Assembly (NCBI GenBank): GCA_964459325.1
Contig: CAYWKU010000007.1
Location: forward strand, 83,422-147,421
DNA length: 64,000 nucleotides
Direction: 5' to 3'
From: an uncultured bacterium
GTDB lineage: Bacteria; RBG-13-61-14; CAYWKU01
A program made the position numbers and the translations under genes. The notes beneath the pieces are model-generated. The model searched no databases. It was given only the letters and a program-made list of their open reading frames with translations, and was not told the DNA's origin. Within the stretch, counting starts at the first letter, position 1; each line of letters opens with the position of its first letter. Positions 5,248-62,340 of the stretch are shown here, in pieces.

Positions 5248-6387
5248 ATGGAGTTTAGCGACGAGCTTAAGATGGTTCGCGACGAAACCCGCAAGTTCGT
5301 TGACCGGGAGATTATACCGAGGGAGATGGAAATCGAGGAGGCGGACGCGGTGCCGCCGGACATCGTAAGCAAGCTGAGGGAGCTTGGCTACTTCGGCATC
5401 AAAACCCCGCCCGAATACGGCGGCCTGGGGCTGGGACTGACCGGATACTGCGTGGTGCAGGAACAGCTCGGGCGAACTCACCCCGCCGTAAACCTCATCA
5501 TCAGCGGCAACAACTCAATAGGCGCAATGGGTATACTAAACGACGGCTCCGACGAGCAGAAGCGCCGCTACCTGCCGAAACTGGCCTCCGGCGAATGGAT
5601 AGCCGCCCTGGCGCTTACCGAACCCGGCGCCGGGAGCGACGCCGCCTCCATCAAAACAAGAGCCGAAAAGAAGGGCGACAAGTGGGTAATCAACGGCGCC
5701 AAGCACTTCATCACCCGCGCGGACATCGCCGACGTGTTCACGGTAATGGCGGTTACCGACAAGGAGAAAGGCCCGAAGGGCGGCATCACCGCGTTTGTGG
5801 TGGAAAAGGGAACGCCGGGCTTCGGCATCTCCAAGCCGCAACACAGCATGGGGTCGGATACGGTGCGCCAGTGCGAAGTTTATTTCGACGATTGCGAAGT
5901 TCCCGAAGAAAATGTTATCGGCGAAGTGGGGTTCGGGTTTCGCGTGGTGATGAAAGTGCTGGAGGATGGCCGCATCGGCCAGGCCGCGCGGGCGCTGGGC
6001 GCCATGAGAAGGCTGCTCGATTTGAGCACCGACTGGGCGAAGCAGAGGGTGCAGTTCGGCAAACCAATCTCCGAACGGCAGGCCATCCAGTGGATGCTGG
6101 CCGACATTGCCCGTGACATCTACGCTTCCGAGTGCATGGTCTACGACGCCGCCGGGCGAAAGGACGAAGGCGAGAGACTCCCGAAGCAGGCGGCGATAGC
6201 GAAGCTGTTCGCCAGCGAAGCCGCATTTCGCGCGGCCGACAACGCTTTGCAGATTCACGGCGGCACCGGCTACATGAAGGATTCGCCGGTGGAGTTTTTC
6301 TTCCGGGAGCTGAGGCTGCTCAGGATTATCGAGGGCACCAGCGAAATACAGCGGATGGTCATATCCCGGGAAGTTCTGAAAGAGTAA
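5248..6387 (+). CDS. Acyl-CoA dehydrogenase
   Basis: ATG at 5248 after a GGAGAGGG purine-rich stretch; typical ACAD sequence throughout (ALALTEPGAGSDAASIKTRAEKKGDKWVINGAKHFITRA, QIHGGTGYMKDSPVEFFFRELRLLRIIEGTSEIQRMVISREVL). Confidence 0.9.
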   Translation: MEFSDELKMVRDETRKFVDREIIPREMEIEEADAVPPDIVSKLRELGYFGIKTPPEYGGLGLGLTGYCVVQEQLGRTHPAVNLIISGNNSIGAMGILNDGSDEQKRRYLPKLASGEWIAALALTEPGAGSDAASIKTRAEKKGDKWVINGAKHFITRADIADVFTVMAVTDKEKGPKGGITAFVVEKGTPGFGISKPQHSMGSDTVRQCEVYFDDCEVPEENVIGEVGFGFRVVMKVLEDGRIGQAARALGAMRRLLDLSTDWAKQRVQFGKPISERQAIQWMLADIARDIYASECMVYDAAGRKDEGERLPKQAAIAKLFASEAAFRAADNALQIHGGTGYMKDSPVEFFFRELRLLRIIEGTSEIQRMVISREVLKE

Positions 6388-8949: not shown

Positions 8950-9123
8950 ATTCCTTGCCTACAACCTCCCCACTCTTTAGGCTAATCATTTTATCCTGTA
9001 TTTTCAATGAAATTCCACAAAGTTGAGGAATATTCTACAGTCTTACTACAGCTTGTGTTGACATCCATCGGCCATCGATTACCCTAACCGCGACTTAACA
9101 AATCCGGCAGGGAGAGATTCATA

Positions 9124-10410
9124 ATGGAGTTGGAAAAAGCCATAGAGTTTCCTAAGGATTTCCTCTGGGGCGCCGCCGCCTGCGCTCACCAGGTGGAAGG
9201 CGACAACTTTTACAACGACTGGTGGGAATGGGAGCAGCAACCCGACAGCATCAAAAACGGCGACCGCTCCGGCAAGGCCTGCAACCACTACGAGCTGTTT
9301 GAAACCGACTTCCGCCTGCTCAAAGAAATGGGCGCCAACGCCCACCGGCTGGGCATCGAATGGAGCCGCATCTACCCTGAAGTGGACCGTCTCGACCCCA
9401 AAGCCGTCGACCATTACAAGAAGGTGCTCGAGACAGCGCGGGAAGCGGGCCTGGAGGTATTCGCCACCGCTCACCACTTCACAAGCCCCGCCTGGTTCGC
9501 GAAAAAGAACGGTTTCCTCGTCGAAAAAAACCTCGATTACTTCAAAAGGTACATCGAGCTTATCGCGAAGGAGCTGTCGCCTTACGTCACATACTGGAAC
9601 ACCATCAACGAGCCGGCGGTCTACGCCGTAATGGGCTGGATGGCGGGCGAATTCCCGCCCGGCCACCAGGACGTGGGCGACGCGGTGGACGTGCTCCGAA
9701 ACATCATACTCGCTCACGCAGCCGCATACCAGGGCCTCAAGGAATACTCCCCCAACGACGTAAAGGTGGGCATCGTCAAAAACATACCCCATTTCATACC
9801 CATGGACCCCGACGACCGGATGGACGTGGAAATGGCCGCCAGCCAGGACAAGTTCTTCAACGAATACCACCTGCACGGCATCGAGACCGGCGTGCTGCAA
9901 CTGGGCAAGGAAGAGGAGTTCCCCGAGCTGAAAGGCTCCACCGACTTCTTCGGACTGAACTACTACATGAAAATGATATGCGACAACGACCGCCCCATGG
10001 GCCCGATGACCGCACTGCCCGACGATAAAAAGACCCAGATGGGATGGGCGGTGCACCCGGACGGACTTTACGAGAGCATCATGAGGCTCAAAAAATACGG
10101 CCTGCCCATCTACATCACCGAAAACGGCATCGCCACCGACGACGACGCTTGGAGGGTCGAGTACATTACGCAGCATTTGCAGAAAACAAGGCAGGCCATG
10201 GACGACGGCGCGGACGTGAGGGGCTACTTCTACTGGTCGAACCTGGACAATTTCGAGTGGGCACAAGGATGGGAGCCGCGCTTCGGGCTTATCTCCTTCG
10301 ACCCCGAAACCTTCGAGCGCAAAATCAAGCCTTCCGGCCAATTCTACGGCGAATGCGCTCAAGCGGGCGCGGTAACGCCGGAACTGGTGGAAAAGTACTC
10401 CGAGGGTTAA
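9124..10410 (+). CDS. Glycoside hydrolase family 1 beta-glucosidase
   Basis: GH1 N-terminal signature FLWGAAACAHQVEGD, acid/base NEP motif (TYWNTINEP), nucleophile ITENG motif; 428 aa. Confidence 0.9.
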   Translation: MELEKAIEFPKDFLWGAAACAHQVEGDNFYNDWWEWEQQPDSIKNGDRSGKACNHYELFETDFRLLKEMGANAHRLGIEWSRIYPEVDRLDPKAVDHYKKVLETAREAGLEVFATAHHFTSPAWFAKKNGFLVEKNLDYFKRYIELIAKELSPYVTYWNTINEPAVYAVMGWMAGEFPPGHQDVGDAVDVLRNIILAHAAAYQGLKEYSPNDVKVGIVKNIPHFIPMDPDDRMDVEMAASQDKFFNEYHLHGIETGVLQLGKEEEFPELKGSTDFFGLNYYMKMICDNDRPMGPMTALPDDKKTQMGWAVHPDGLYESIMRLKKYGLPIYITENGIATDDDAWRVEYITQHLQKTRQAMDDGADVRGYFYWSNLDNFEWAQGWEPRFGLISFDPETFERKIKPSGQFYGECAQAGAVTPELVEKYSEG

Positions 10411-10536
10411 GAAAAAAGCCCGGACAAGCCGGTCATCGGTCATTTCTCCCTCCGGATAGTATCTGCGAGTCAGGACATTATCCATTTAACCGTAACAGAT
10501 TACAACAGTATACCTCGCCCTGCTCGAAAGATACCG

Positions 10537-10862
10537 GGTACCCCACCTTGCACGCAGTGCGAGGTGGGTAGCGAAGCTACAGGGAAATGTGGTATGAAGG
10601 ATTGCGGATTATCAATCGAGCAGTCTGCTATTTAATGAAGAGGGGAAAGGCGCCGGGGTATCGGTTTCGAAGCCGTCAATATTCCCTGCCCGTCCGGGCC
10701 CACCTGGAACCTTCGGGTCAAGGTGGGGTACCCGGTATCCCCGGGTTAAAACCCGGGGCTTAAAGATAAATGTGAAACTCCCCGGCTTAAAAGCCGGGGT
10801 TTCCGAGGGGTGAGCAAAATTGATAGCCCACACAACTTGCTTGTGTGGGTGAGCGAAGCTCA
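10537..10862. repeat. Cluster of stable stem-loops in a convergent intergenic spacer, including two copies of a hairpin-plus-GCGAAGC mini-hairpin unit and three GC-stem/TTAAAA-loop hairpins
   Basis: Unit 1 at 10537-10580 (ccaccttgcacgcagtgcgaggtgg + gtagcGAAgctac); unit 2 at 10827-10862 (cccacacaaCTTGCttgtgtggg + tgagcGAAgctca); between them ccccgggTTAAAAcccgggg and ccccggcTTAAAAgccgggg. Confidence 0.6.
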
Positions 10863-11040
10863 CGGGAGACAATTCCCTCCTGCGCCTTCGGCGCCGGGCT
10901 TACGCTTACGCTTTAAGCCCGGCTACCCGCTATCGAGCACACCATAATGTGTTCAAGCCATGACAAATTTTATACTTTGCGCCTTTGCGTGATGCTTCAA
11001 ATGACTTGGGTTGGGGTTGCATTTTGCTACGGTTTGGGGG

Positions 11041-11139
11041 TGTAGAATTCGAGGGTCGATTTTCTACAACATTTTCTACAGAATTGTAGAATATTCTACA
11101 ACGTTGTAGGATATTCTACAGGTGACAATTTTCGTCACC
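11041..11139. promoter_or_regulatory. Array of TTCTACA-containing palindromes (operator- or iteron-like), including an 18-bp perfect palindrome
   Basis: At least seven TTCTACA/TGTAGAA half-sites within ~80 bp; perfect palindrome TTGTAGAATATTCTACAA (11084-11101), near-palindrome TTGTAGGATATTCTACAG (11104-11121), inverted repeat GGTGACaattttcGTCACC (11121-11139). A related GGAATATTCTACAG copy lies at 9026-9039 upstream of the GH1 gene. Confidence 0.5.
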
Positions 11140-11193: not shown

Positions 11194-12210
11194 TCAGACG
11201 GTCACCCTGCCCGCCTTTTCGGCCCGGTACCATTCTATAAGTGAAGGCAGGCCCTCCTTGATAGTCGGGTACCTCAACGGACCCGGCATGCGCGATTTCA
11301 TCCGCACGTTGGAGTAGACCAGGTCGGAGTGGGCGATGTCCAGCATCCCCCCTATGCCGAAGGGGAATCCCAGAAGGTCGCTGACCGCGTCCACCGGCAC
11401 AGCCAGCGTTTTCAAGAGAAACCGGGGCATGGAGCGGATTTTGAGCACTATCCCCAACTGCTGCGCGATGCGCTCCAGAAAATTCTTCACCGTTATCCGG
11501 TTGTCGTCCACCGCGTGGATTACCTTGGCGTGAGCCTTGGGGTCGTAACCGGCGCAAACCAGCAGGCGCGCCAGGTCTTCTGCGTGAACCAGCGGTATGA
11601 TTTTATCTCCCTTGCCCACGAACGGAAGGCCCAGCTTGCCGTACTTGTCCATGAAATCTATCAAGCCCTTGAGGTGGACGCTGTGAGGGCCGTATACCAG
11701 CGCGGGGCGGATGATGGCGTAGTCCAGGCCGTCTTCCAGGTGAGCCGCCCGCATTATCTGCTCGGACTTGTACTTGTAGGTGGTGTAGAGGTCGTGGAGC
11801 TTTTTAGACGGTGGAGTTTCTTCGGTGGCGGGGAATTCCGAAGGTATACCCGCCACGGATATGCTGGAGAGCAGCACCAGGCGCTTTCTGTGTTGATGCA
11901 ATGCCCTTCCGACCAGTCGCCGCACCAGCTCCATGTTGTGTTTAATGGCCCACTTGGTAGTGTTGGGCAACTCTCCCGCGTGGTAGATGACATCCACGCC
12001 GGCACAGGCTTCCTCCACCCTGACCAGGTCCCGAAGGTCGCCGTGAAATATTTCGACGCCCCGCTTTTTCCACGCGGCGGCCTTTTCGGGAGTGCGCACG
12101 AAAGCCCTTACCGGCACTTCGGCCCTGATAAGCTGCTCCACCAGGTGGGAGCCGATGAAACCGGTGGCGCCGGTTACGAGTACGGGATTTTTCTGCTGCT
12201 CGGATTCCAT
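11194..12210 (-). CDS. NAD(P)-dependent epimerase/dehydratase family protein (SDR superfamily)
   Basis: N-terminal Rossmann motif VLVTGATGFIGSHLVEQL; 338 aa typical of extended SDRs. Confidence 0.8.
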   Translation of the reverse strand: MESEQQKNPVLVTGATGFIGSHLVEQLIRAEVPVRAFVRTPEKAAAWKKRGVEIFHGDLRDLVRVEEACAGVDVIYHAGELPNTTKWAIKHNMELVRRLVGRALHQHRKRLVLLSSISVAGIPSEFPATEETPPSKKLHDLYTTYKYKSEQIMRAAHLEDGLDYAIIRPALVYGPHSVHLKGLIDFMDKYGKLGLPFVGKGDKIIPLVHAEDLARLLVCAGYDPKAHAKVIHAVDDNRITVKNFLERIAQQLGIVLKIRSMPRFLLKTLAVPVDAVSDLLGFPFGIGGMLDIAHSDLVYSNVRMKSRMPGPLRYPTIKEGLPSLIEWYRAEKAGRVTV

Positions 12211-12354: not shown

Positions 12355-12669
12355 CTAATCGGAGGATTTTTCTCCGGCGGATTTTTTCTCCGCAGGCTTC
12401 GACGTATCCTTGGCCGCCTTGTCGGAGCTTGACTCGGCGGAAGTCGAGGCTTCGCTTTCGGAATTTTTGTCTGCGGCGCCGTTTCCGCCGTTTTTTCGCG
12501 CGTAGTCGGTGGCGTACCACCCGCTGCCCTTGAGGTGGAAATTATTTAGCGAAATCAATCGCTTAACCTTGCAGCGGCAGTTGGGGCACCGCTTCAGCGG
12601 GTCGTCGCTTATCTTTTGCATGACCTCCACCACGCCGCACCTGGGGCAGTCATATTCGTAAATCGGCAT
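12355..12669 (-). CDS. FmdB-family zinc-ribbon protein with a low-complexity Ser/Ala/Lys-rich tail
   Basis: [12 protein letters not shown]...CPNCRC arrangement (two CxxC pairs) at the N-terminus; C-terminal low-complexity tail. Confidence 0.75.
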
Positions 12670-12821
12670 CTTTACATCGCCTCCACAATTTTTGATGAAA
12701 AAACACGTACCTGAGGCTCAGTCATTAAGTAATATAATCTCCCGAACCGCCCCCGTCAAGAGAGGTGTTAGCACTCAAGGGAAATGAGTGCTAAGAACAG
12801 AAAGGGTTGATAAGCGCCGAT

Positions 12822-26002: not shown

Positions 26003-27406
26003 TTACGGGCTCGGCTCTGCTTCCTCGTCTTTTTCCGAGAGCTTGCTCTGTTTTCTGTAGAGCGTGCGGCGGTTGATGCCCAGAATTTTGGCCGCCAGCT
26101 CCTTTTTGCCGCCCGTTTTTTTAAGAACTTCCCTGATGTATGTGTCTTCCAGCTCCTCCAGGGTCATGTCTTCGTTGACCGCTTTTTCCACCAGTTTCGG
26201 GGAATCCTCGGACGGCTCGAAAGCCAGCTCATCCGGGCCTATCACATCGGACTGGCAGAGCACCAGCGACCTTTCGATGAGGTTTTCCAGCTCTCTTACG
26301 TTGCCCTGCCAGTCGTGAGTCATCAACTTGGCCATGGCTTCCCGTGAGAGCCTTTTCAAGGAAGTATTCATTTGTTCGGAGTACTTGGTCAAAAAGTGTT
26401 CCGCCAGTAGAGGAATATCCTCCCTTCTTTCCCGAAGCGGAGGCAGGTGAATGGGAATGACGTTGAGCCTGTAATACAGGTCTTCGCGAAAGTTGCCTTT
26501 GGATATTTCTTCCCTCAGATTTTTCTGCGTGGCGGCGATTATCCTGACGTCGATAGTACGCGGCTCGCTGCCGCCCACCGGCCTGACTTCCTTGTCTTCG
26601 ATAACCCTCAGTATCTTCGCCTGCAGCGCCTGCCCCATTTCAGCGATTTCGTCCAGGAACACGGTGCCGTTCTGGGCATCCAGAAGCATTCCCCGGTGGC
26701 TTGCCACGGCGCCGGTGAACGCTCCCTTGACGTGCCCGAAAAGCTCGCTTTCCAGCAGTCCGTCAGGTATGGCGGCGCAGTTTATGGGTATGAACGGTTT
26801 ATCGTTTCGGGGGCCGTTGTAATGCACGGCCTTTGCCACCAGCTCCTTGCCGGTTCCCGATTCGCCGAGCACCAGCACGTTGCTGGATGTGGGCGAGACG
26901 CGGGATATGATTTCGAACACCCTCTTCATCGAAGGGCTTTTGCCTATTATGTTGCCGTAGCGGTACCGCTGGTGAACTTCATTGCGAAGTTGGATATTCT
27001 CGCGCTTGAGCCGGTACAACTGGGCCGCGTTGCGAACCCTGTTCCGTATTTCGTCGTTGTTGGTAAAAGGTTTGCTGAAGAAGTCGTAAGCGCCCTTCCG
27101 CATGGTCTCGACCGCCAGGTCTATCGACCCGAAGGCGGTAATCATGATAACGGCGCTTTCCGGGGATTTTTCGCGGGCGTAGGAAAGAACTTCCATGCCA
27201 TCCACATCGGGCATTTTTATGTCCGCGATAACTACGGGATAACTCTTTTCGGAAATTTTTTCTATTGCCGCACGGCCGCCGGTGACAACTTCCACCTCGT
27301 GCCCGTCCTTTTCGAGGATGTCCTTGAGCAGCGACCCCATTTCAACTTCGTCATCGACGACGAGAACGCTGGCGCTATGCTCCCGGTTATGTGCCTCTTC
27401 TTCCAT
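26003..27406 (-). CDS. Sigma-54-dependent response regulator (NtrC/Fis family: REC + AAA+ sigma-54 activator + HTH)
   Basis: Receiver domain (VLVVDDE...ADIKMPDVDG), Walker A GESGTGKE, GAFTGA sigma-54 interaction motif, C-terminal Fis-type HTH. Confidence 0.9.
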   Translation of the reverse strand: MEEEAHNREHSASVLVVDDEVEMGSLLKDILEKDGHEVEVVTGGRAAIEKISEKSYPVVIADIKMPDVDGMEVLSYAREKSPESAVIMITAFGSIDLAVETMRKGAYDFFSKPFTNNDEIRNRVRNAAQLYRLKRENIQLRNEVHQRYRYGNIIGKSPSMKRVFEIISRVSPTSSNVLVLGESGTGKELVAKAVHYNGPRNDKPFIPINCAAIPDGLLESELFGHVKGAFTGAVASHRGMLLDAQNGTVFLDEIAEMGQALQAKILRVIEDKEVRPVGGSEPRTIDVRIIAATQKNLREEISKGNFREDLYYRLNVIPIHLPPLRERREDIPLLAEHFLTKYSEQMNTSLKRLSREAMAKLMTHDWQGNVRELENLIERSLVLCQSDVIGPDELAFEPSEDSPKLVEKAVNEDMTLEELEDTYIREVLKKTGGKKELAAKILGINRRTLYRKQSKLSEKDEEAEPSP

Positions 27407-53303: not shown

Positions 53304-54667
53304 CCGGCCAGCTCCATTCCACGAGAGAGTAGATTGACGGCCCCCCCGGCTCCACCGGCCCGGGCAAGCCTTGAAACGACGTAAGAAGGCCTGGCGTAAA
53401 AACTGAAATGTGCGGCTCTCAGCGCCTTCCTCAACTTTTGCGGCGTCCAATATTCGTCCATCACTGCCGGTCGGGCCAGGTCGGCGTCGAAGGGGTTCAT
53501 GGCGTCGGTCATTCCGAGCCAACCTTTTTTTAGAGCCTCGTCGTAAAGCGGGGTTCCCTCCACCGGCGACAAAACGCTGAACTGGGCCCAAGTAACCCCC
53601 CACCTTGCCGCGAACCGGGCTGTTTCTTTAACGTGCTCCAGTCTTTCACCCGGTATTCCCACCAGAAAGTAAGCCAAAACGTCCATTCCCGCTTGCCGGG
53701 TCATGGTTATAGCCTTCCCGATATCGGACGAGGAAGTGCCCTTTCGCAGGAACCGCAGGCTTTTCTCGTGGATGCTTTCGATGCCGTAGGAAACTATTCG
53801 ACACCCCGCCCGGCTCATCCAATCAAGCATCTCCGGGTACACGTCATCTACACGGGCCTCGCACTTCCATCGGATGTTAAGTCCTTCTTCGATGATGCGT
53901 CGGCAGATTTCAATGACCCGCTCGGCGTCCAGCGTGAAAAGGTCGTCATAAATTATAACGGAACGTACGCCCGAATCGCAAGCAATTTGCCGCAGCTCCT
54001 CCAGCACCCTGTCGGCCGAATGAAGCCTCGGTGCGGAGCCAAAAACGCTTTTGTCGCAGAAGATGCAGGCATGAGGACAACCGCGACTCGTGAAAAGCGT
54101 GGTCGCCGCACCCGGCCCGAGAGGGGGATAAGAATACCGGGAGTGCTCCAGGAGTCCGCGGGCGGGATACGGGAGGCCGTCGAGGTCACCGGAAGGAGAC
54201 GCAGGCGGAGTGTGTCCTTCAGGTGTCACCACTCCGTGTAATGCGAAAAGGTCGCCGTTGTTTTGTAACGTTTCCAGCAGGTTTGCAATAACGCCCTCCC
54301 CTTCGCCCAGGACGACAGCGTCGGCGGGAAAATCGCCTTCGGTTGTGAAGAATTCCGCCCCCCGCATGGTAACATGAGGGCCCCCGATGACGACGGTTTT
54401 CCCCGCGTTTTTCGATATTTGTGCGGCACGGCAGGTTAAGTCCCATGTCGGGGTCATGCCGGTAAGCGCCGCGACCTTCGCGTTTGAAGACCGAACGCGG
54501 TTTTCAAATTCCTTCCAGCTCAGGCCGAGTGCCGGAGCATCGACCAGCTCGGCATCATGGCCCGCCTCCATGCAAACCCCTGCCAGATAAAGCAGTCCAA
54601 GAGGAGGCACAACGAAAGGCGGCTTGCGGCCTTCGCGGGCCGGAGGCACTGCAAAAAGAACTTCCAT
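53279..54667 (-). CDS. B12-binding domain-containing radical SAM enzyme
   Basis: N-terminal B12-binding-like domain (PLGLLYLAG, VVIGGPHVT), radical SAM motif SRGCPHACIFC. Confidence 0.8.
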   Translation of the reverse strand: MEVLFAVPPAREGRKPPFVVPPLGLLYLAGVCMEAGHDAELVDAPALGLSWKEFENRVRSSNAKVAALTGMTPTWDLTCRAAQISKNAGKTVVIGGPHVTMRGAEFFTTEGDFPADAVVLGEGEGVIANLLETLQNNGDLFALHGVVTPEGHTPPASPSGDLDGLPYPARGLLEHSRYSYPPLGPGAATTLFTSRGCPHACIFCDKSVFGSAPRLHSADRVLEELRQIACDSGVRSVIIYDDLFTLDAERVIEICRRIIEEGLNIRWKCEARVDDVYPEMLDWMSRAGCRIVSYGIESIHEKSLRFLRKGTSSSDIGKAITMTRQAGMDVLAYFLVGIPGERLEHVKETARFAARWGVTWAQFSVLSPVEGTPLYDEALKKGWLGMTDAMNPFDADLARPAVMDEYWTPQKLRKALRAAHFSFYARPSYVVSRLARAGGAGGAVNLLSRGMELAGWMRKTKK

Positions 54668-54802
54668 CTCAAGTCAAACATGGTAGAACAGGCGGCGTCC
54701 GTCGGCAATTGAAGAAGGAGGCTCACCCTCTTAATTTATCCCGGCATCTTGTTATTTCTTTCGCAGACATCCCCCAAAATTCATTTGAAAAAAAATACAT
54801 GC

Positions 54803-56317
54803 TCACTCGCAGATTTTTTTAACAAACTCATCATTCAGATATTTGGAGACAATCTTCTTTTGAGCTTCATCCGGAGAGTTCATGGGGTTAATGCAGGTAA
54901 AAAAATCGAGGAGCCGATTTTTATTCAACTTCAAGGCTGAGGAAAACAAGGATTTCACCAAGCCTCTGGAGAAATGTCTGGCGACGTAATTACGACTGAA
55001 AAATGAACCGATTAGCGATGCCATTTCGATGAACCGCCCGGGTCCCAATGTTTCCTTCGCATTTGCCTGCCTTCTGTTTTTATAGGTGTATGCCGACAAA
55101 AATCGCTCGTGATAAAACATATCCTTAAACTGTACGCCCATTTTCTCGAACTTGCTCAGCCCTTTTACTCCGCGCATCGGGATAAATATACTGACCGCAC
55201 AAGAGTCACAAATCTCCGATTTCGGAAGTTTATTTTTGTTTGGCGAGCTATATGCGAGCGGGTATCCGCCGAGGAACTGGGCAGATACGTAGACACCGGC
55301 GTCATAAAGGATTTCGTATACTCTTTTATAATCCAAAGGAAGGGTATTATTCTGCAAGCCTTTTTCCATGGTCTTCAAGGCCTCGGCTTCATCAGTTTCA
55401 TAGCCAATCGCTGCCAGCCTTAACCCCGCGCGCCCCGCCAATTTAAACAACTCCGGGTGTTTTAAAACATTATCCGCCCTGATGAAAGCAAAAAAGTTGA
55501 CGTCTATATTTTCCTGTAATAGCTTTTCGAATATTCTTGATTCAATCTCGGGATTTTCGCCGAAGTTGTCATCACTGATAAGTATTTGAGTTATTCCGAG
55601 TTTTCTCAATCTTGCGATTTCCTCGAACACTCTCTCCGGCGATTTGTATCTTTGTCTCATATACCACATGGTATTTGAAACGCAAAAATTACACGGATGA
55701 GGACATCCGCGGGATGATTCCACAACCCCGGCGTAACCATTCGAGTTCAGATAAGCATTATATAACCTGTAATTAATGAGTTCCCATTTTGCCAAGGGCA
55801 GGCTGTCCAGATTTGCTATCAATTCCCTGTCGGGGTTCACGCGGATTTCGCCGTCTTCTGTAGAATACGTAATCCCTGAAACGTCCGATAAGTCCGTTCC
55901 CCCGTCGAGAGCTTCTATCGTTTCCTTAAAAGTAATATCACCCTCTCTTCTTATAACTATATCCGCTCCTTTGTTTACCCATTCCCTGTCGTAAAATGTG
56001 GAGTGATGGCCTCCGAGAATAATTTTTGTTTCCGGGTTGATTTTCTTTATAATCTTGATTGTAAGCTCGCTGTTTAAGGCGTGAAACGGGGAAACAACGC
56101 TCAAGCACACGACATCCCGCCCTCGGAGCTTTTCCAGGTATTTCTTTTTGGAAATCGGGGACACCCTGGCATCTAATATTTCCATCTCATGGCCGGAAAC
56201 GGAGGCGGCGATTTGAGGGAATGTGGCGGAGCCTACGTGAAAAACCTCGTTAAGAAAGTCGCCCGGATAAGGCCATGTCGAATATAATACCTTTGGATAC
56301 AGAAAGAGTATTTTCAT
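54803..56317 (-). CDS. B12-binding domain-containing radical SAM enzyme (AT-richer codon usage than neighbours)
   Basis: MKILFLYP N-terminus, IILGGHHST, radical SAM motif SRGCPHPCNFC. Confidence 0.8.
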   Translation of the reverse strand: MKILFLYPKVLYSTWPYPGDFLNEVFHVGSATFPQIAASVSGHEMEILDARVSPISKKKYLEKLRGRDVVCLSVVSPFHALNSELTIKIIKKINPETKIILGGHHSTFYDREWVNKGADIVIRREGDITFKETIEALDGGTDLSDVSGITYSTEDGEIRVNPDRELIANLDSLPLAKWELINYRLYNAYLNSNGYAGVVESSRGCPHPCNFCVSNTMWYMRQRYKSPERVFEEIARLRKLGITQILISDDNFGENPEIESRIFEKLLQENIDVNFFAFIRADNVLKHPELFKLAGRAGLRLAAIGYETDEAEALKTMEKGLQNNTLPLDYKRVYEILYDAGVYVSAQFLGGYPLAYSSPNKNKLPKSEICDSCAVSIFIPMRGVKGLSKFEKMGVQFKDMFYHERFLSAYTYKNRRQANAKETLGPGRFIEMASLIGSFFSRNYVARHFSRGLVKSLFSSALKLNKNRLLDFFTCINPMNSPDEAQKKIVSKYLNDEFVKKICE

Positions 56318-56825
56318 ACACGGAACTCCTCAATCGTGTTCGATGAAGCCTCCAAGCACTCATTTTGAACGCGAAAAGTTGCCCATCCGATTGGATTATG
56401 CCGGGCGAGCCGAAAGCGGGTATTCTTTAAAGAACACCTGTTATCCAAAATGGCCGGCAATTGCAATTTTCTCGCGATTCCGAATAAAAACTTTTTTGTA
56501 AACAGAATTGTCAACTTCTTAAATCAAATAGTTCTTCTTGTTTTTTAATGATAACCGGGACATGCCGTGAATTCAACTTTCCGTAAATCGTTTGATTTCT
56601 CTATTCGAGTTCCGCCACAATTGCAGTGATTTTTTCAGTCCCCCGGCAATCAGCCGAAAAAGAAAAAAACAAAATTCCAGCCTATGTCGGTATTTGCCGG
56701 TGAAGTATATGATTGCTATACTGACAACAGTTAAAAGGTTACCACGTGTCTTTCAGACGGAAGAGGTGGAACAAAACTAATGTTTACCAATCCAATAATC
56801 AGATAAGCGAAACAATCCTTTTCTC

Positions 56826-58589
56826 ATGATGCCTCGAAACTTTTCCCGTCTAAGCTCATCCTCTCAGTCAGACAACTATATCACGCTGACATTGCTGACG
56901 TTGATAGGAGCATTCGCGTACTATATTTCCTACGTTCAATACGGTATGATTCAAGTGGACGAGGGTATTTTTCTGGATTTTTCCATCAGGATGATGCGCG
57001 GCAGGGAATGGTTCGTTGACTTTTTTCCACCGTACGGCCCTCTGAACTTCCTCCCACTGAGTGGAATTTTTTCCATTACAGAGCCAAGCTTTTTCTTTTT
57101 CCGATTGTTTTACATATTGTTCAGGCTTTGCGGTTTATGGGCGATGATTTCCGTTTCCAGACGCCTGATGCCCTCCAAATGGGCGGTGTTGGCGATTTTA
57201 CCCGTGATTATAGCTCCCGGCCATCTGTTTAAAAGCGTTTTCCTCCTGATGCCCATGTTGATTTTGTGGCTGGTTTTTCGGGCATGGGAATCGCGCCGGA
57301 TGTTCTGGCTGTTCGTGACCGGATTAGCCGCGGGCATTTCTTTGTACTTCCGCTACGAGATGATTTTTCCACTATCCGTTATCGCGCTCTTGGGACTCGA
57401 GCTAGACCATTTTCGCCGGCATTTTAAACATCATGAGCGCTGGATTCGGCGTTTGATTAGTATCACGGGCGTATTCGCCGGGTTGATGTTACCGGCGTTT
57501 TTTTTCCCCGGGGCAGTCAATGCTCCTAATATTTTGGGGCGTGCTTTCTTTGGAGGAAAAATTCCGGCTCTGGGAGTGCCGTGGCCCGGGTTTCCAACGA
57601 CCCATAGCCCGGACCAAACAGCCACGTTTCTGGTATTGTGGGGGGTGCTTGCAATTTACGCCGGGGTTGGAGCGGATATTTTGCGCACTCTGTTTCGGGC
57701 AAGGAGCTATCCCGCATGGGAACACAGGCTGCTGGTACTCGTGGCAGGGACACTGTTTCTTTACAATGTGCTCTTTCAAAGTAATCTTGGCCACATGCTT
57801 CAAGTCTCGGCCCCCGCCTTTCTGCTGCTGGCGGACATCGGGCGACGGGCCGTTGTATACGGCAAGAACACAATAATGAAAATAGCATCGGGAGCGGTTC
57901 TTGCCGGAATCCTAGCCGCCTTCCTGATTTACGCCGTCTTTTTAACCAACTTGCCCGGAGTCGCCGGCATCGCCCTTCGCCGGATGATGGACACTCCAAT
58001 AACTTCGCCCCTGGGCACGGTATATTTTCACGGGCCGAGAGCCGGCCAAATACAATCAACAATAAATTATATAATGTCTCACACCGAGCCCGATGACCCC
58101 GTGCTGGTAGTGCCCAGGGCCACTCTTATCTCGATAATGTCGGAACGACCGAACCTTAACCCATACGATACCGTAGAAACTTTTCCCACATTTGTATCTG
58201 GTTGGAAAACCGTTAACGATTTTTTTAAAGCCATTACCAAATCGGAGCTTATCGTTTATTTCGAGCGGCCGACGAGATTGGAACGGCCCCGTGCCCCGCA
58301 TCAAAGAATGCGCAGCAACGACTTTATATTCGAGACGATCCTTCGAAACTACACCTTCGAAAAGCGTTTTGGAGAGTATATAATCCTGAGAAAAGGAAAA
58401 GACGAAACCGGCGCCACAAGAGCCTTCATTGACGGCTGGGAGGCGTATAAATACGGTCATTGGGAAAAAGCGGAAGGTTCGTTGAAAAAAGCCGTCGAGG
58501 CCGGGCTTTCCGAGTCCGAAATACGACCTATTCTAAAAAATATCAAACATTTCAAATCATTAGGATTATCTCGTCCCCCGCAATTATGA
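56826..58589 (+). CDS. Polytopic membrane protein, GT-C-like, with C-terminal soluble TPR-like region
   Basis: About 12 transmembrane helices in the first ~400 aa; only plus-strand gene inside the cluster; function unassigned. Confidence 0.45.
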   Translation: MMPRNFSRLSSSSQSDNYITLTLLTLIGAFAYYISYVQYGMIQVDEGIFLDFSIRMMRGREWFVDFFPPYGPLNFLPLSGIFSITEPSFFFFRLFYILFRLCGLWAMISVSRRLMPSKWAVLAILPVIIAPGHLFKSVFLLMPMLILWLVFRAWESRRMFWLFVTGLAAGISLYFRYEMIFPLSVIALLGLELDHFRRHFKHHERWIRRLISITGVFAGLMLPAFFFPGAVNAPNILGRAFFGGKIPALGVPWPGFPTTHSPDQTATFLVLWGVLAIYAGVGADILRTLFRARSYPAWEHRLLVLVAGTLFLYNVLFQSNLGHMLQVSAPAFLLLADIGRRAVVYGKNTIMKIASGAVLAGILAAFLIYAVFLTNLPGVAGIALRRMMDTPITSPLGTVYFHGPRAGQIQSTINYIMSHTEPDDPVLVVPRATLISIMSERPNLNPYDTVETFPTFVSGWKTVNDFFKAITKSELIVYFERPTRLERPRAPHQRMRSNDFIFETILRNYTFEKRFGEYIILRKGKDETGATRAFIDGWEAYKYGHWEKAEGSLKKAVEAGLSESEIRPILKNIKHFKSLGLSRPPQL

Positions 58590-58668
58590 ACAAGAGGCCG
58601 TTGCAGAATTATGATTTTTCGTTTGGGATGTGTTGACCTTCATCGTGCCGAAAAAGAACCCCGAATGG

Positions 58669-58717
58669 ACAAGGGGCTTCAGCCCCTTGAATTTCAAGGG
58701 GTTAAAACCCCTTGTCT
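58669..58717. terminator. Tandem GC-stem hairpins between convergent genes (candidate bidirectional terminator; member of the GGGG-TTAAAA-CCCC hairpin family)
   Basis: GACAAGGGGC-ttca-GCCCCTTG followed by CAAGGGG-ttaaaa-CCCCTTGTC; further hairpins and T-runs up to ~58870. Confidence 0.5.
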
Positions 58718-58901
58718 GGAAAAGACATTCCCGGGGAGCTACAGAAAAAAAGCCTTCTCTCCCCCTGAAGCCTGTTTTGCAACGGTCTCAACAAATAAAA
58801 AACTCCCGGCCGTCTCTTTCGGCCCGCCCTTTTTTCGTGATTTATTTTAGAAAAACAGGCTGCGGCTTTTTGTTCGGGAGGGCGAAATGCCGGGGTTTAT
58901 T

Positions 58902-60269
58902 TCAAGGAAAAGTTCCCCGGCCAACAAAACCCAGTCTATGGGCGTTATAACTCGAAAAATCTATAAGCTTCTTGGTATAATTCAAAACACGATAATCCCT
59001 TTTCGTAGACCAATCGAGTGCTACACTGAGGGGATAATGAAACCGTGTATATCTTTCCGCTTCGATACTGTAACGCTTGAATTCAGAATCCAAATTGTCA
59101 GAACTGATGTTGGGGAGAGGAACGTCGGCGTAAAACGGTATATTAATTATCGAAAACGGATATTTTTTATGAAGTTTAATAATTTCTTTTACCACACCTC
59201 TACTTGGTCTGAGTCCCGAAAAGGCGATAAAAACTGAGATACTAATTTCGTCAACTCGCCGAGCCCACTCGAGAATACGAGCAAACTGACTTAAGTCGAA
59301 ACTCCGCATCCAATCTACCACCGGTTGAAAAATCAAATGAACACTTGTAAAACAAGAATTTATTATTTCCAACTCTTCGACTTTTGGAAGACGGTAAAAC
59401 ATGTATTCAAGGGAAAAATTTCGCTTTTTCGTAAATATCTTATCGACATATCCCATAGAGGGATATTCCAGCGGATCATGGGACACTATGTATACGTATT
59501 GTATTTTAGAATCGGCATGAAATCTATCAAAGTCAGAGGCCACGGCTTCCGGAGACCTGAATACCATCCCCCTTCCCATGAGAGCTTTTTGGTACTTGAA
59601 ATTTCCCATGCATTCGCATTTAAACTGACACCCCCTGAATACATTAAGATATGGATATACGAAATGAGAAAAAATGCTCCGTTGGGACTTGTAAATCCAG
59701 TTTTGCAGTGAAGGGAACCAATCAATGGTGATGAAATCCATGGAATCGAATTCTTCGCCGGATATAGTATATGTGACCTCTCCGGTCATATCGGCGCTGG
59801 TAACATTTGGGGGAAGACCTCCGTCGTCGCCGTCCAAAATACGCCCAACAAGCTCGGGAAACGGGCGGTCGGCATCTCCGATAACCACGTAATCCACTCC
59901 CCACTTGTCCACCAGTTGGCGGTGAAAAATGCCGGCGGTGTACCCGCCGATAATTATGCGGGCCCGGGGATTGATTCGCCTGATGCGCCTTACAAGACGT
60001 CCGGCCGAGGCAAGCGAGTAGAACCAGTGAACATCCATGGCTATTATCTTCGCCCGGGCTATATCGGAATCGGTTACATCAAAATCGAACCTGCCGAGTT
60101 TGGAGCCGGAAACGGCGTTTATGAGGGCAATCGCCCCCATGGGCACCACGCGACGAAACGAATGACCGCCATACGGATGAATGTAAAGTACGTCCAGGTC
60201 CCTTTCGCTCATAAAGACCTTCCCCTCTAAGCTGTTATTCCATTCTTGGAACTCAAGCGGAGGCGACAC
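58902..60269 (-). CDS. Radical SAM-like protein with B12-binding-like N-terminal region and a non-canonical CX3CXC cysteine motif
   Basis: FRGCQFKCECMG sits where B12-radical SAM enzymes carry SRGCxxxCxFC; N-terminal DVLYIHPYGG...IIIGGYTAG resembles a B12-binding domain. Confidence 0.5.
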   Translation of the reverse strand: MSPPLEFQEWNNSLEGKVFMSERDLDVLYIHPYGGHSFRRVVPMGAIALINAVSGSKLGRFDFDVTDSDIARAKIIAMDVHWFYSLASAGRLVRRIRRINPRARIIIGGYTAGIFHRQLVDKWGVDYVVIGDADRPFPELVGRILDGDDGGLPPNVTSADMTGEVTYTISGEEFDSMDFITIDWFPSLQNWIYKSQRSIFSHFVYPYLNVFRGCQFKCECMGNFKYQKALMGRGMVFRSPEAVASDFDRFHADSKIQYVYIVSHDPLEYPSMGYVDKIFTKKRNFSLEYMFYRLPKVEELEIINSCFTSVHLIFQPVVDWMRSFDLSQFARILEWARRVDEISISVFIAFSGLRPSRGVVKEIIKLHKKYPFSIINIPFYADVPLPNISSDNLDSEFKRYSIEAERYTRFHYPLSVALDWSTKRDYRVLNYTKKLIDFSSYNAHRLGFVGRGTFP

Positions 60270-60377
60270 GGCAAAACCTTACCACATATAAAATAGCTCA
60301 CAAAATCAGCCGGTAAATTGCAAGCATGCAGCCGGCCGGTTAACGGGCCACTCGCCGGCCAAAACGCCGTATTCGGT

Positions 60378-61913
60378 TTATGCATTATACCAGGAAGGTT
60401 TCCTGCTGCTCATGTACTGTTCGCCGCTACCGGATAAGAGACCTTTAAGTTGTGCCCATTGAAATTTCAGCGCCACTTTCCAGAACCACCAGTACAAGTT
60501 CCTTTTGAAGGGATAGGGACTTACAAGCCCCTTAAAAAAACCGCCTCCTCGAAAGATGAATTTCTTCATCATGTCGTTGTATAATTCCAGCATTTCATTC
60601 CGCGTCATGTTCTTGCACTCAATGATAGGATTAAACCAGTCATACTTGGAAAAATCCCTTTCCATTATTATTTTCGCTTCCTGAGCGTCTTCCCAGAATT
60701 TGGTGCCGGGCAGGGGGGTGATGAAATGAAACGCGGGGAAATTCACCTTGCTCTCCAACGCATAGTCCAGAATGGCCATCATGGACTCACGAGTCTCGTT
60801 GGGAAAACCTACCAGGTATGTGCATTGACACCACACCTGGGGATATTTTCTTGCCATAAGCTTGCATGCTTCCTTGGCTGTTTCGGATGTGTAGTTCTGC
60901 TTATGCAGCATTTGAAGGTCTCCGGTGGTAGCCCGTTCCGCGCCGATGAGGATCATTTTCATCCCGGACTTCACCTGTTTTTCGAGAATGCCCAACTTTT
61001 CATCCCTCAAAAGCATGTCCGCCCTCATGAAAGCGAACCACCCTATGTCCCAATTGCGGCGCAATATTTCCGTCGCCCACTTATCATTCCACTCAGGATT
61101 CATATTCCAAGTGCCGTCCACCCAATTGAACTGCCGACTGCCGTAATCGGTATACAGCCGTTCCATTTCCTCGATGGTTTTTTCCACGCTCTTGGTGCGG
61201 TACATTGGGCTAGCAACGGGTTTGTCGCCTTCCATGTGCCAGGGACTCTCCTGAGGCCAGAAAGAACAATATGTACAACCGGAAGTGCACCCGCGAGAAT
61301 GCTGAACCGGAATGCTCTTTTTGAAAGCCCACAATCTGCCGCGCTGCCCGTATATCTCGTGATTCATAAGGTCATAGGCGGGCAACGGCAGGTCATCGAG
61401 ATTTTTTACAGGCTCGCGGAACGGAGTCCGAACCAGCTTTTCTCCGTCATGGTAGATCAACCCCTTAACCGTATCCGGGTTCGGCTCGGACCTCATCAAT
61501 TCCTTGAGCAACTCCGGTAAAGTGTCCTCTCCCTCACCGAATACCAGATAATCAAAAGGAGCATCATTTCCCAGGTACATATCCGGCAGGAAAGGATAAT
61601 GTCTCCCCCCACCTATTACCACACAGTCGGGATTGGCGCGCTTGGCTATCCTTGCCACCCTTTCCCCTTCGTTGGCGTACATTGTCTCTTCGCCAATACC
61701 TACGAAATCGGCCCTCTCATCATTTATCATCTTCTCCAGAGTTCTCCAACCCGTTCGGAGAGCGCAACAATCAATAATCTTGATATCCAGGTCGGGAATA
61801 CGTTCCCGGACAGTCGCCGCAAGATAGGGATAATTAAGCGGCATCCAGAAATTGTCGTCCATGTTTACGAATTGCCAATAGCGACGCGGGGACCTGACGA
61901 ATAATAACTTCAT
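60378..61913 (-). CDS. B12-binding domain-containing radical SAM enzyme
   Basis: Start taken at internal Met (MKLLFVRSP); VVIGGGRHYP B12-domain-like segment; radical SAM motif SRGCTSGCTYC. Confidence 0.8.
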   Translation of the reverse strand: MKLLFVRSPRRYWQFVNMDDNFWMPLNYPYLAATVRERIPDLDIKIIDCCALRTGWRTLEKMINDERADFVGIGEETMYANEGERVARIAKRANPDCVVIGGGRHYPFLPDMYLGNDAPFDYLVFGEGEDTLPELLKELMRSEPNPDTVKGLIYHDGEKLVRTPFREPVKNLDDLPLPAYDLMNHEIYGQRGRLWAFKKSIPVQHSRGCTSGCTYCSFWPQESPWHMEGDKPVASPMYRTKSVEKTIEEMERLYTDYGSRQFNWVDGTWNMNPEWNDKWATEILRRNWDIGWFAFMRADMLLRDEKLGILEKQVKSGMKMILIGAERATTGDLQMLHKQNYTSETAKEACKLMARKYPQVWCQCTYLVGFPNETRESMMAILDYALESKVNFPAFHFITPLPGTKFWEDAQEAKIIMERDFSKYDWFNPIIECKNMTRNEMLELYNDMMKKFIFRGGGFFKGLVSPYPFKRNLYWWFWKVALKFQWAQLKGLLSGSGEQYMSSRKPSWYNA

Positions 61914-62340
61914 GGTATCCTCCCGTTCCCGAAACATCTATCTCGTAAATACGAAGCTTAACAATTGAAAATAACAATCCGGCCCGCGAAATAAAAGCGG
62001 ATTTTCCACATTTCCGTCAGCTCTACGTAACTCCGAGCCGCCCCTCCTTGGAGTCCATGCTCCCAAGAAGGTTCCAAAGCCCCATCCGCCCCACTCTTGA
62101 CGCGAGTCGTGACAGTCCACCTGCTTGAAATTATACAATATCCTGCCCCTCAATTCAACTGAAACCCACCGGGGGGCTAACGTTTCGTATTGTGTGTAAA
62201 AGTAAGGACTTTTTATGTACCCTCCGCTTTTTGTTGTCAAATAAAAAGGCATTATTTCATCCCAGAATTTGATATTCTCAGCCCGATTTTGTTATGGCGG
62301 TTTGCATAAATCCGGCTTGGCAAATAGTTTAAATTGTATC

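Follow-up and report, generated by a model that had tools for sequence, protein, structure and literature searches.

A candidate array of binding sites for an NtrC-family response regulator between convergent glycosidase and epimerase genes of an uncultured bacterium

Introduction

What function might a dense cluster of short inverted repeats serve in a gap toward which both neighboring genes are transcribed? The question is raised by a stretch of DNA of 64,000 nucleotides from an uncultured bacterium (here called the window), in which copies of TTCTACA and its complement TGTAGAA crowd into the 783-bp gap between convergent GH1 glycosidase and SDR epimerase genes. An earlier note on this DNA had offered three answers: operator sites for a dimeric regulator, an iteron-like array, or remnants of terminal inverted repeats around a mobilized cassette. 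The gap itself holds no coding potential, no gene for a small metal-binding protein and no ORF downstream of the array. The immediate surroundings are as follows.

9124-10410, plus strand: GH1 glycosidase gene (Pfam GH1 match)
10411-11040: hairpin-dense non-coding stretch of 630 nt between the GH1 stop codon and the array
11121-11139, minus strand: hairpin GGTGAC-N7-GTCACC with a 6-bp stem, between the epimerase stop codon (11194) and the array, holding no motif copy
11194-12210, minus strand: SDR epimerase gene

Results

The array and a second motif locus

TTCTACA occurs nine times in the 64-kb window, counting both strands, as compared to 3.0 +/- 1.8 times in shuffled sequences, and six of the nine copies cluster within 11041-11120. 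These six and a seventh half-site with one mismatch, TGTAGGA, bear out the count of at least seven half-sites in about 80 bp with which the earlier note began. The interval that it gave, 11041-11139, holds for the motif as far as 11120; the remaining segment, 11121-11139, is the separate hairpin listed above, which may be where the epimerase mRNA ends. The elements of the array are:

11041-11047 (minus), 11062-11068 (plus), 11074-11080 (plus), 11085-11091 (minus), 11094-11100 (plus), 11114-11120 (plus): exact half-sites
11105-11111: the seventh half-site, with one mismatch
11105-11120: site P1, TGTAGGATATTCTACA, 15/16 of the consensus, the site closest to the epimerase stop codon
11085-11100: site P2, TGTAGAATATTCTACA, 16/16, starting 20 bp from the start of P1, with a 4-bp ACGT spacer
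11084-11101: perfect 18-bp palindrome TTGTAGAATATTCTACAA, spanning P2
11074-11080, plus strand: half-site TTCTACA (ATTTTCTACAG), sharing the 20-bp register of P1 and P2 when read on the minus strand
11041-11068: wide inverted repeat TGTAGAA-N14-TTCTACA, which closes the array

The perfect palindrome is as the earlier note described it, and its near-identical neighbor is the 15/16 copy 20 bp from 11085-11100. Taken as a 16-mer, TGTAGAATATTCTACA is matched in full at 11085-11100, at all but one position at 11105-11120 and at all but two at 9024-9039; shuffled sequences contain 0.03 matches with up to three mismatches, and a scan of all 64 kb finds no further site of at least 14/16. On the minus strand, the array reads TGTAGAATATCCTACA-ACGT-TGTAGAATATTCTACA-ATTC-TGTAGAAAATGT-TGTAGAAAAT-CGACCCTCG-AATTCTACA, and TGTAGAA starts at 0, 20, 40 and 52 bp; the starts at 0, 20 and 40 bp place three sites in helical phase. 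The array is real and non-random, and it is predicted to bind protein.

A second motif locus lies 2 kb away, in the intergenic region between the divergent C11-peptidase and GH1 genes:

9004-9039: TCAATGAAATTCCACA (10/16)-AAGT-TGAGGAATATTCTACA (14/16)

This pair repeats the 20-bp register of P1/P2 with a 4-bp spacer and is also found in an independent Logan contig (L002). The related copy reported earlier, GGAATATTCTACAG, is present at 9027-9040, one position away from the 9026-9039 given there, and ends 85 bp before the GH1 ATG at 9124, as claimed. By their coordinates the two motif loci do bracket the GH1 gene; there is no sign that they delimit an element.

The palindrome in other genomes

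The exact 16-mer TGTAGAATATTCTACA was sought in 185,579 species genomes (596 Gb), where at least 112 loci were found; about 140 matches are expected by chance in 596 Gb, and many of the matches are indeed random. A large subset, from Calditrichota, KSB1, Zixibacteria, Neomarinimicrobiota, Deferribacterota, Ignavibacteriales, Zhuqueibacterota and several Desulfobacterota, has a consistent layout. In the comparator genomes, the palindromes are nearly all intergenic, and a second, imperfect copy typically lies 21-23 bp from the exact one: among secondary sites (at least 12/16, within 200 bp), 24 of 30 are at 17-23 bp, with a mode of 21-22 bp, as compared to 1.1 expected under a uniform distribution. 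Promoters of the GG-N10-GC type that point away from the sites at a distance of 60-220 bp number six versus 1.25 expected (P=0.002). At L049, L078, L118, L109, L023 and L063, the palindrome pair is followed by about 70-100 bp of A+T-rich DNA, then by TGG(C/T)A-N-TTGC, then by a gene.

A gene for a sigma-54 response regulator (REC-AAA+-HTH_8) is detected by tblastn at 16 of the 112 loci, and the palindrome often follows directly after its stop codon (L049, L099, L084, L114, L014). The helix AAR.L.IPRHVL[IL]YR..K.G is common to 13 of the 14 full-length regulators, all of which carry GAFTGA or GSFTGA; a regular-expression search for the helix motif succeeds at 15 of 112 palindrome loci and at none of 93 unrelated control loci. 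The activator subfamily and the palindrome sites therefore co-occur in the comparator genomes. The DNA-binding domain of these regulators resembles the solved Fis-type HTH domains of NtrC-family proteins (2m8g, 4l5e). Among the three answers offered earlier, operator sites for a dimeric regulator are favored by these data, tandem 16-bp palindromes recurring beside dimeric Fis-type HTH sigma-54 activators.

At two Desulfobacterota-type loci (L084, around 1973, and L114, around 6284), the TAG stop codon of the regulator gene lies inside TGTAGAATATTCTACA, so the 3' end of the gene overlaps the presumed binding site.

Among 126 ORFs lying no more than 3 kb from 24 tandem sites, a Pfam census counts OEP (8), Sigma54_activat (7), HisKA/HATPase (6-7), CusB-type HlyD_D23 (4), HMBD (4), ACR_tran (3), FtrD-like (3), HMA (3), P-II (2) and YHS (2). 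SHOCT peptides and a family of small membrane proteins also recur near tandem sites. The latter proteins (about 105-135 aa, no Pfam match, motifs FFPV..YTC.YHR and WW.SL) are encoded directly downstream of tandem sites in L014, L030, L034, L068 and L094, and the family may be an additional, new part of the metal regulon. The 16-mer string is absent from the searchable literature, and a paper on the Desulfovibrio sigma-54 regulome makes no mention of the motif; the motif-regulator pair appears not to have been described previously.

Relation to known systems

The closest likeness is to the upstream activating sequences (UAS) of the NtrC family, e.g., those of NtrC at glnAp2, of NorR with its three sites and of ZraR at zraP. 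The comparator genomes have the same tandem palindromes in helical register, about 70-100 bp upstream of GG-N10-GC, beside a histidine kinase gene and one encoding a REC-AAA+(GAFTGA)-HTH_8 regulator. NorR and NtrC assemble into hexamers from three dimers, an arrangement that three in-phase sites in the window would suit. Two differences stand out: the TGTAGAATATTCTACA motif and the IPRHVLxYR helix are specific to the present subfamily, and the sites in the window come without a sigma-54 promoter or a cognate regulator gene.

Two metal-associated two-component systems with sigma-54-dependent response regulators, ZraSR (zinc/lead, E. coli/Salmonella) and CorSR, the copper system of Myxococcus xanthus (PMC3707914), invite comparison, as the comparator loci likewise hold Cus/Czc-type RND efflux, YHS, HMA and HMBD genes. 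The comparator regulators score highest against the AtoC, NtrC and ZraR models of NCBIfam, with 441-484 bits for AtoC (cut-off 714) and 374-410 bits for ZraR (cut-off 760), below every equivalog cut-off, and so do not count as orthologues of ZraR, AtoC or NtrC. The histidine kinases, which score best against the AtoS and ZraS models, also stay below cut-off and, unlike ZraS with its periplasmic domain, are predicted to have a membrane-embedded N-terminus rich in His and Cys. The comparator system is predicted to work like ZraSR or CorSR while lying outside those orthologous groups, the link to metals coming from the neighboring genes.

Three other operators share the TGTA/TACA ends and the form of a 16-18 bp palindrome: the CopY/BlaI cop box TACAnnTGTA, the Rex box TTGTGAA-N4-TTCACAA and the NtcA site TGTA-N8-TACA; CopY also has a link to metals. 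The likeness is superficial. Elsewhere the spacers between palindromes vary in length and sequence (5-7 nt), and TACAnnTGTA is therefore not conserved; the center of the motif, GAATATTC, is conserved, whereas the N8 of NtcA is free; and no CopY, Rex or CRP-family gene recurs beside the motif in the 126-ORF census. All three were rejected on these grounds.

A regulator of this subfamily as the binder of the window array

We regard it as reasonably probable that the array consists of enhancer or operator sites for dimers of an NtrC-family response regulator from an unnamed, ZraSR/AtoSC-like subfamily. Such a regulator would combine a REC domain, an AAA+/sigma-54 domain and a Fis-type HTH that bears the AAR.L.IPRHVL[IL]YR..K.G helix. 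In other genomes, two palindromes about two helical turns apart would serve as an upstream activating sequence: the phosphorylated regulator would form an ATPase ring on the paired sites and open a sigma-54 promoter 70-100 bp away, which would drive genes for Cus/Czc-type RND efflux and small metal-binding proteins. In the window, P1, P2 and the half-site at 11074-11080 share a 20-bp register and are followed by the wide repeat, an arrangement that could give room for three dimers on one face of the DNA. Given the 16/16 and 15/16 matches to the consensus and the three in-phase sites, we infer that an IPRHVL-type regulator encoded elsewhere in the genome, outside the window, would bind here. 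Candidate targets would be a minus-strand transcript running into the 630-nt region and, via 9004-9039, the divergent C11-peptidase/GH1 promoters.

Several features of the window fit this reading poorly. The IPRHVLxYR helix is absent, by regular-expression search, from the 64-kb window and from the relatives of the locus. The only sigma-54 activator in the window (26003-27406) was considered as the binder and rejected, its recognition helix, ILGINRRTLYRK, being different. The window has no metal-homeostasis genes. The array sits between two convergent genes, and its sites are spaced by 20 bp versus the usual 21-22 bp. A -24/-12 promoter is present at comparator loci and, in a weak form (CGGCGGGCCGATTGCG), in the related locus L003; in the window, no acceptable GG-N10-GC element is found on the minus strand below the array or beside 9004-9039, nor was a sigma-54 promoter detected ahead of the Zn-ribbon/epimerase operon. 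Close to the array there is a single GG-N10-GC element:

11013-11028, plus strand: sigma-54-like GG-N10-GC, GGGGTTGCATTTTGCT, pointing into the array

Its orientation is wrong for a classical enhancer, and it is therefore probably a chance match. The array is in an atypical position in the window and is possibly orphaned.

The Zn-ribbon/epimerase operon has a feature of its own. A perfect CIRCE element (HrcA operator consensus TTAGCACTC-N9-GAGTGCTAA) lies at 12768-12794, upstream of the Zn_ribbon_8 gene (12355-12669) and the epimerase gene, and not before the usual chaperone operon.

Operators on sigma-70 promoters

The same palindromes could act in another way. They hold the -10-like hexamer TAGAAT, and a dimeric HTH protein, either the same regulator acting as a repressor or an unrelated one, could sit on sigma-70 promoters to block or tune the C11-peptidase/GH1 pair and a transcript that starts within the array. 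There is precedent within the family: NtrC represses at glnAp1. Two promoter-like matches overlap the motif:

9061-9032, minus strand: sigma-70-like TCAACA-18-TAGAAT, a consensus match only, aimed at the C11 peptidase (ATG 8949), 76 nt upstream of the ATG
11063-11092, plus strand: sigma-70-like TCTACA-18-TAGAAT, inside the array

The -10 hexamer of the former falls inside the 9024-9039 palindrome, and a sigma-54 promoter is found at neither motif locus. Because TAGAAT and sigma-70-like promoters overlap the motif at both loci, the regulator may repress by occlusion rather than activate via sigma-54; occlusion is a live alternative at the window loci, though the promoter calls are not above chance. 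The scan of the region gives three promoter-like matches as compared to 1.5 in shuffled sequences, a non-significant excess; TAGAAT belongs to the motif itself; and elsewhere the motif stands upstream of sigma-54 promoters rather than on sigma-70 ones. Operators on sigma-70 promoters are, on balance, a minority prospect that nonetheless ranks first among the alternatives.

The C11 peptidase, a candidate target at 9004-9039, has no homologue at E<1e-100 among 5.8 billion proteins save itself.

Synteny and a possible orphan array

Comparison with relatives of the locus bears on whether the array, read as sites for an NtrC-family regulator, still has a target. The closest relative, L003, with an epimerase 90% identical, is collinear with the window from 20687 down to about 11090, and the synteny breaks exactly at the end of the array. 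Directly after its epimerase stop codon, L003 carries a shorter array, cGTAGAATATTCTcCA-ACGT-TGTAGAA-N14-TTCTACA, with the ACGT spacer and the 14-nt wide spacer common to both (the wide repeat of L003 is at 9309-9336); the hairpin at 11121-11139 is absent there. The window array amounts to the L003 array with a further 32 bp of units. Beyond its last half-site, L003 goes on with the sigma-54-like element CGGCGGGCCGATTGCG, a co-oriented PilZ gene and acs; the window contains none of the three. Relatives with epimerases 86% and 74% identical have no array. Conservation in orthologous regions, another point raised by the earlier note, therefore extends in part to L003, which speaks for the regulator reading, and not to these two loci, which speaks against it.

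Such a break would be expected if the array had been parted from its target, whether through a rearrangement or because the assembly was joined across a repeated array, and had no regulatory output now. Independent contigs of the same strain in Logan stop at 11082 (L001) and 10796 (L002), so that 10797-11081, the join of the array to the structured region, has the assembly of the window as its sole source; there, the repeats may have caused a rearrangement or an ambiguous assembly, a second array may have given rise to a chimera, or the number of units may be polymorphic. Decay is, on the other hand, at odds with the window array, which is longer than its L003 counterpart and nearer to the consensus (16/16 and 15/16, versus 14/16 plus partial sites in L003), and there is the second site 2 kb away at 9004-9039. 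We consider an orphaned array without present output unlikely.

The 630-nt hairpin-dense stretch

The non-coding DNA that separates the GH1 stop codon from the array is rich in hairpins. It contains a perfect 21-nt long-range inverted repeat (10530-10550 with 10719-10739), three CCCAC...GTGGG hairpins, two GCGAAGC mini-hairpins and the twin palindromes CCCCGG(G/C)TTAAAA(C/G)CCGGGG, and it folds with z-scores of -7.2 (minus strand) and -5.5 (plus strand). Rfam finds no family at gathering thresholds in the whole window and, at E<10, only noise in the intergenic region (HgcC with 19 bits versus a threshold of 50, and miRNA-like hairpins). With the 630-nt region as query, blastn and nhmmer matched nothing elsewhere in the window or in the fetched loci, plasmids and phages. 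The junction TTCTNCAACGTTGTAGAA has 93 matches in metagenomes, all of them unrelated and mostly from one CDS of low-GC genomes; none comes with an array.

One bold extension of the regulator reading is that the array controls the adjacent stretch as a large structured RNA under a metal-sensing two-component system, and that motif arrays also act as recombination points that shuffle the membership of the regulon. If true, the recombination points would account for the break of synteny at the end of the array and for the extra 32 bp relative to L003. The extension is improbable.

An ORF of 468 aa, opening with a strong GGAGG-ATG start, runs on the minus strand from 10485 to 9079, antisense over all of GH1. 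With the Pfam GH1 match on the plus strand, this antisense frame is most likely a shadow ORF.

Mobile elements, RNA hairpins and replication sites

The remaining explanations fare worse. The motif could mark the ends of a mobile element or recombination sites, as binding sites for a transposase or recombinase (Tn7/Mu-like ends start with TGT, as does the motif) or as relics of terminal inverted repeats that bracket GH1. The break of synteny at the array would agree with this, as would the surroundings: the stretch from 6.4 to 11.0 kb, with the array at its border, is lineage-specific, the C11 peptidase lacks a close homologue, and GH1 orthologues (75-84% identical DNA) lie in three different contexts in three relatives. 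At all three loci, however, homology ends at the boundaries of the GH1 ORF and neither the motif nor the structured region is present; with the flanks differing and the motif missing, GH1 is not a repeat-bounded cassette. No transposase or integrase is encoded in the neighborhood, the half-sites are oriented wrongly for an element between 9039 and 11041, and elsewhere the motif accompanies regulator genes and sigma-54 promoters rather than mobile elements. Nor, so far, has the array pair been seen around differing cargo with target-site duplications in other genomes. Terminal inverted repeats of a transposon or MITE were likewise rejected, as there is no transposase, no further copy in the window and no common flank of GH1. 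Mobile-element ends are very unlikely. The mobilized cassette suggested in the earlier note thus finds no support.

A MITE-like element with terminal inverted repeats TGTGAAAATCCGGA...TCCGGATTTTCACA does occur at other loci (L004, 11205-11484; L119, around 5700-5975), with at least two copies in one metagenome sample, one after an epimerase orthologue and one before a GH1 orthologue. In the window, a low-GC block at about 54000-62000 (0.46-0.48 versus 0.56-0.60 elsewhere) carries four B12-binding radical-SAM genes as well as PMT_2-type glycosyltransferases; it may have been acquired as a cluster for envelope modification.

The palindromes might instead work as RNA, folding into hairpins that end or terminate the epimerase mRNA. 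The array begins 74 nt past the epimerase stop codon on the same strand, and UUCUACA-ACGU-UGUAGAA can fold; in Rfam the array region gives only miRNA-like hairpin noise. The stems are AU-rich, though, with no U-tract and no call in a scan for intrinsic terminators; the palindrome elsewhere lies upstream of genes rather than at the 3' ends of unrelated ones, and the relatives with epimerases 86% and 74% identical do without it. An RNA-level role seems just as far-fetched as the mobile element.

Least credible of all is a cluster of iterons or DnaA boxes that serves as an origin of replication or for DnaA titration: TTTTCTACA agrees with the relaxed DnaA box, TTWTNCACA, at 8 of 9 positions, and the local density of sites is high, but the one deviation lies within the conserved CACA core, the sites are palindromes with 2-bp spacing rather than direct repeats, the flanking genes converge, there is no dnaA, dnaN or rep gene, the GC skew keeps its sign at 11 kb and the comparative data tie the motif to a transcription factor, so that the iteron-like array proposed in the earlier note finds no footing.

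Implications

For the window, an unexplained repeat becomes a testable regulatory site, an enhancer-like array that stands without a visible promoter. More broadly, the comparison pairs a 16-bp motif with a recognizable subfamily of sigma-54 regulators and a metal-efflux regulon, a pairing that spans the poorly studied phyla Calditrichota, KSB1, Zixibacteria, Deferribacterota and Desulfobacterota. The pairing of motif and regulator allows regulons to be predicted and regulators to be annotated in uncultured bacteria.
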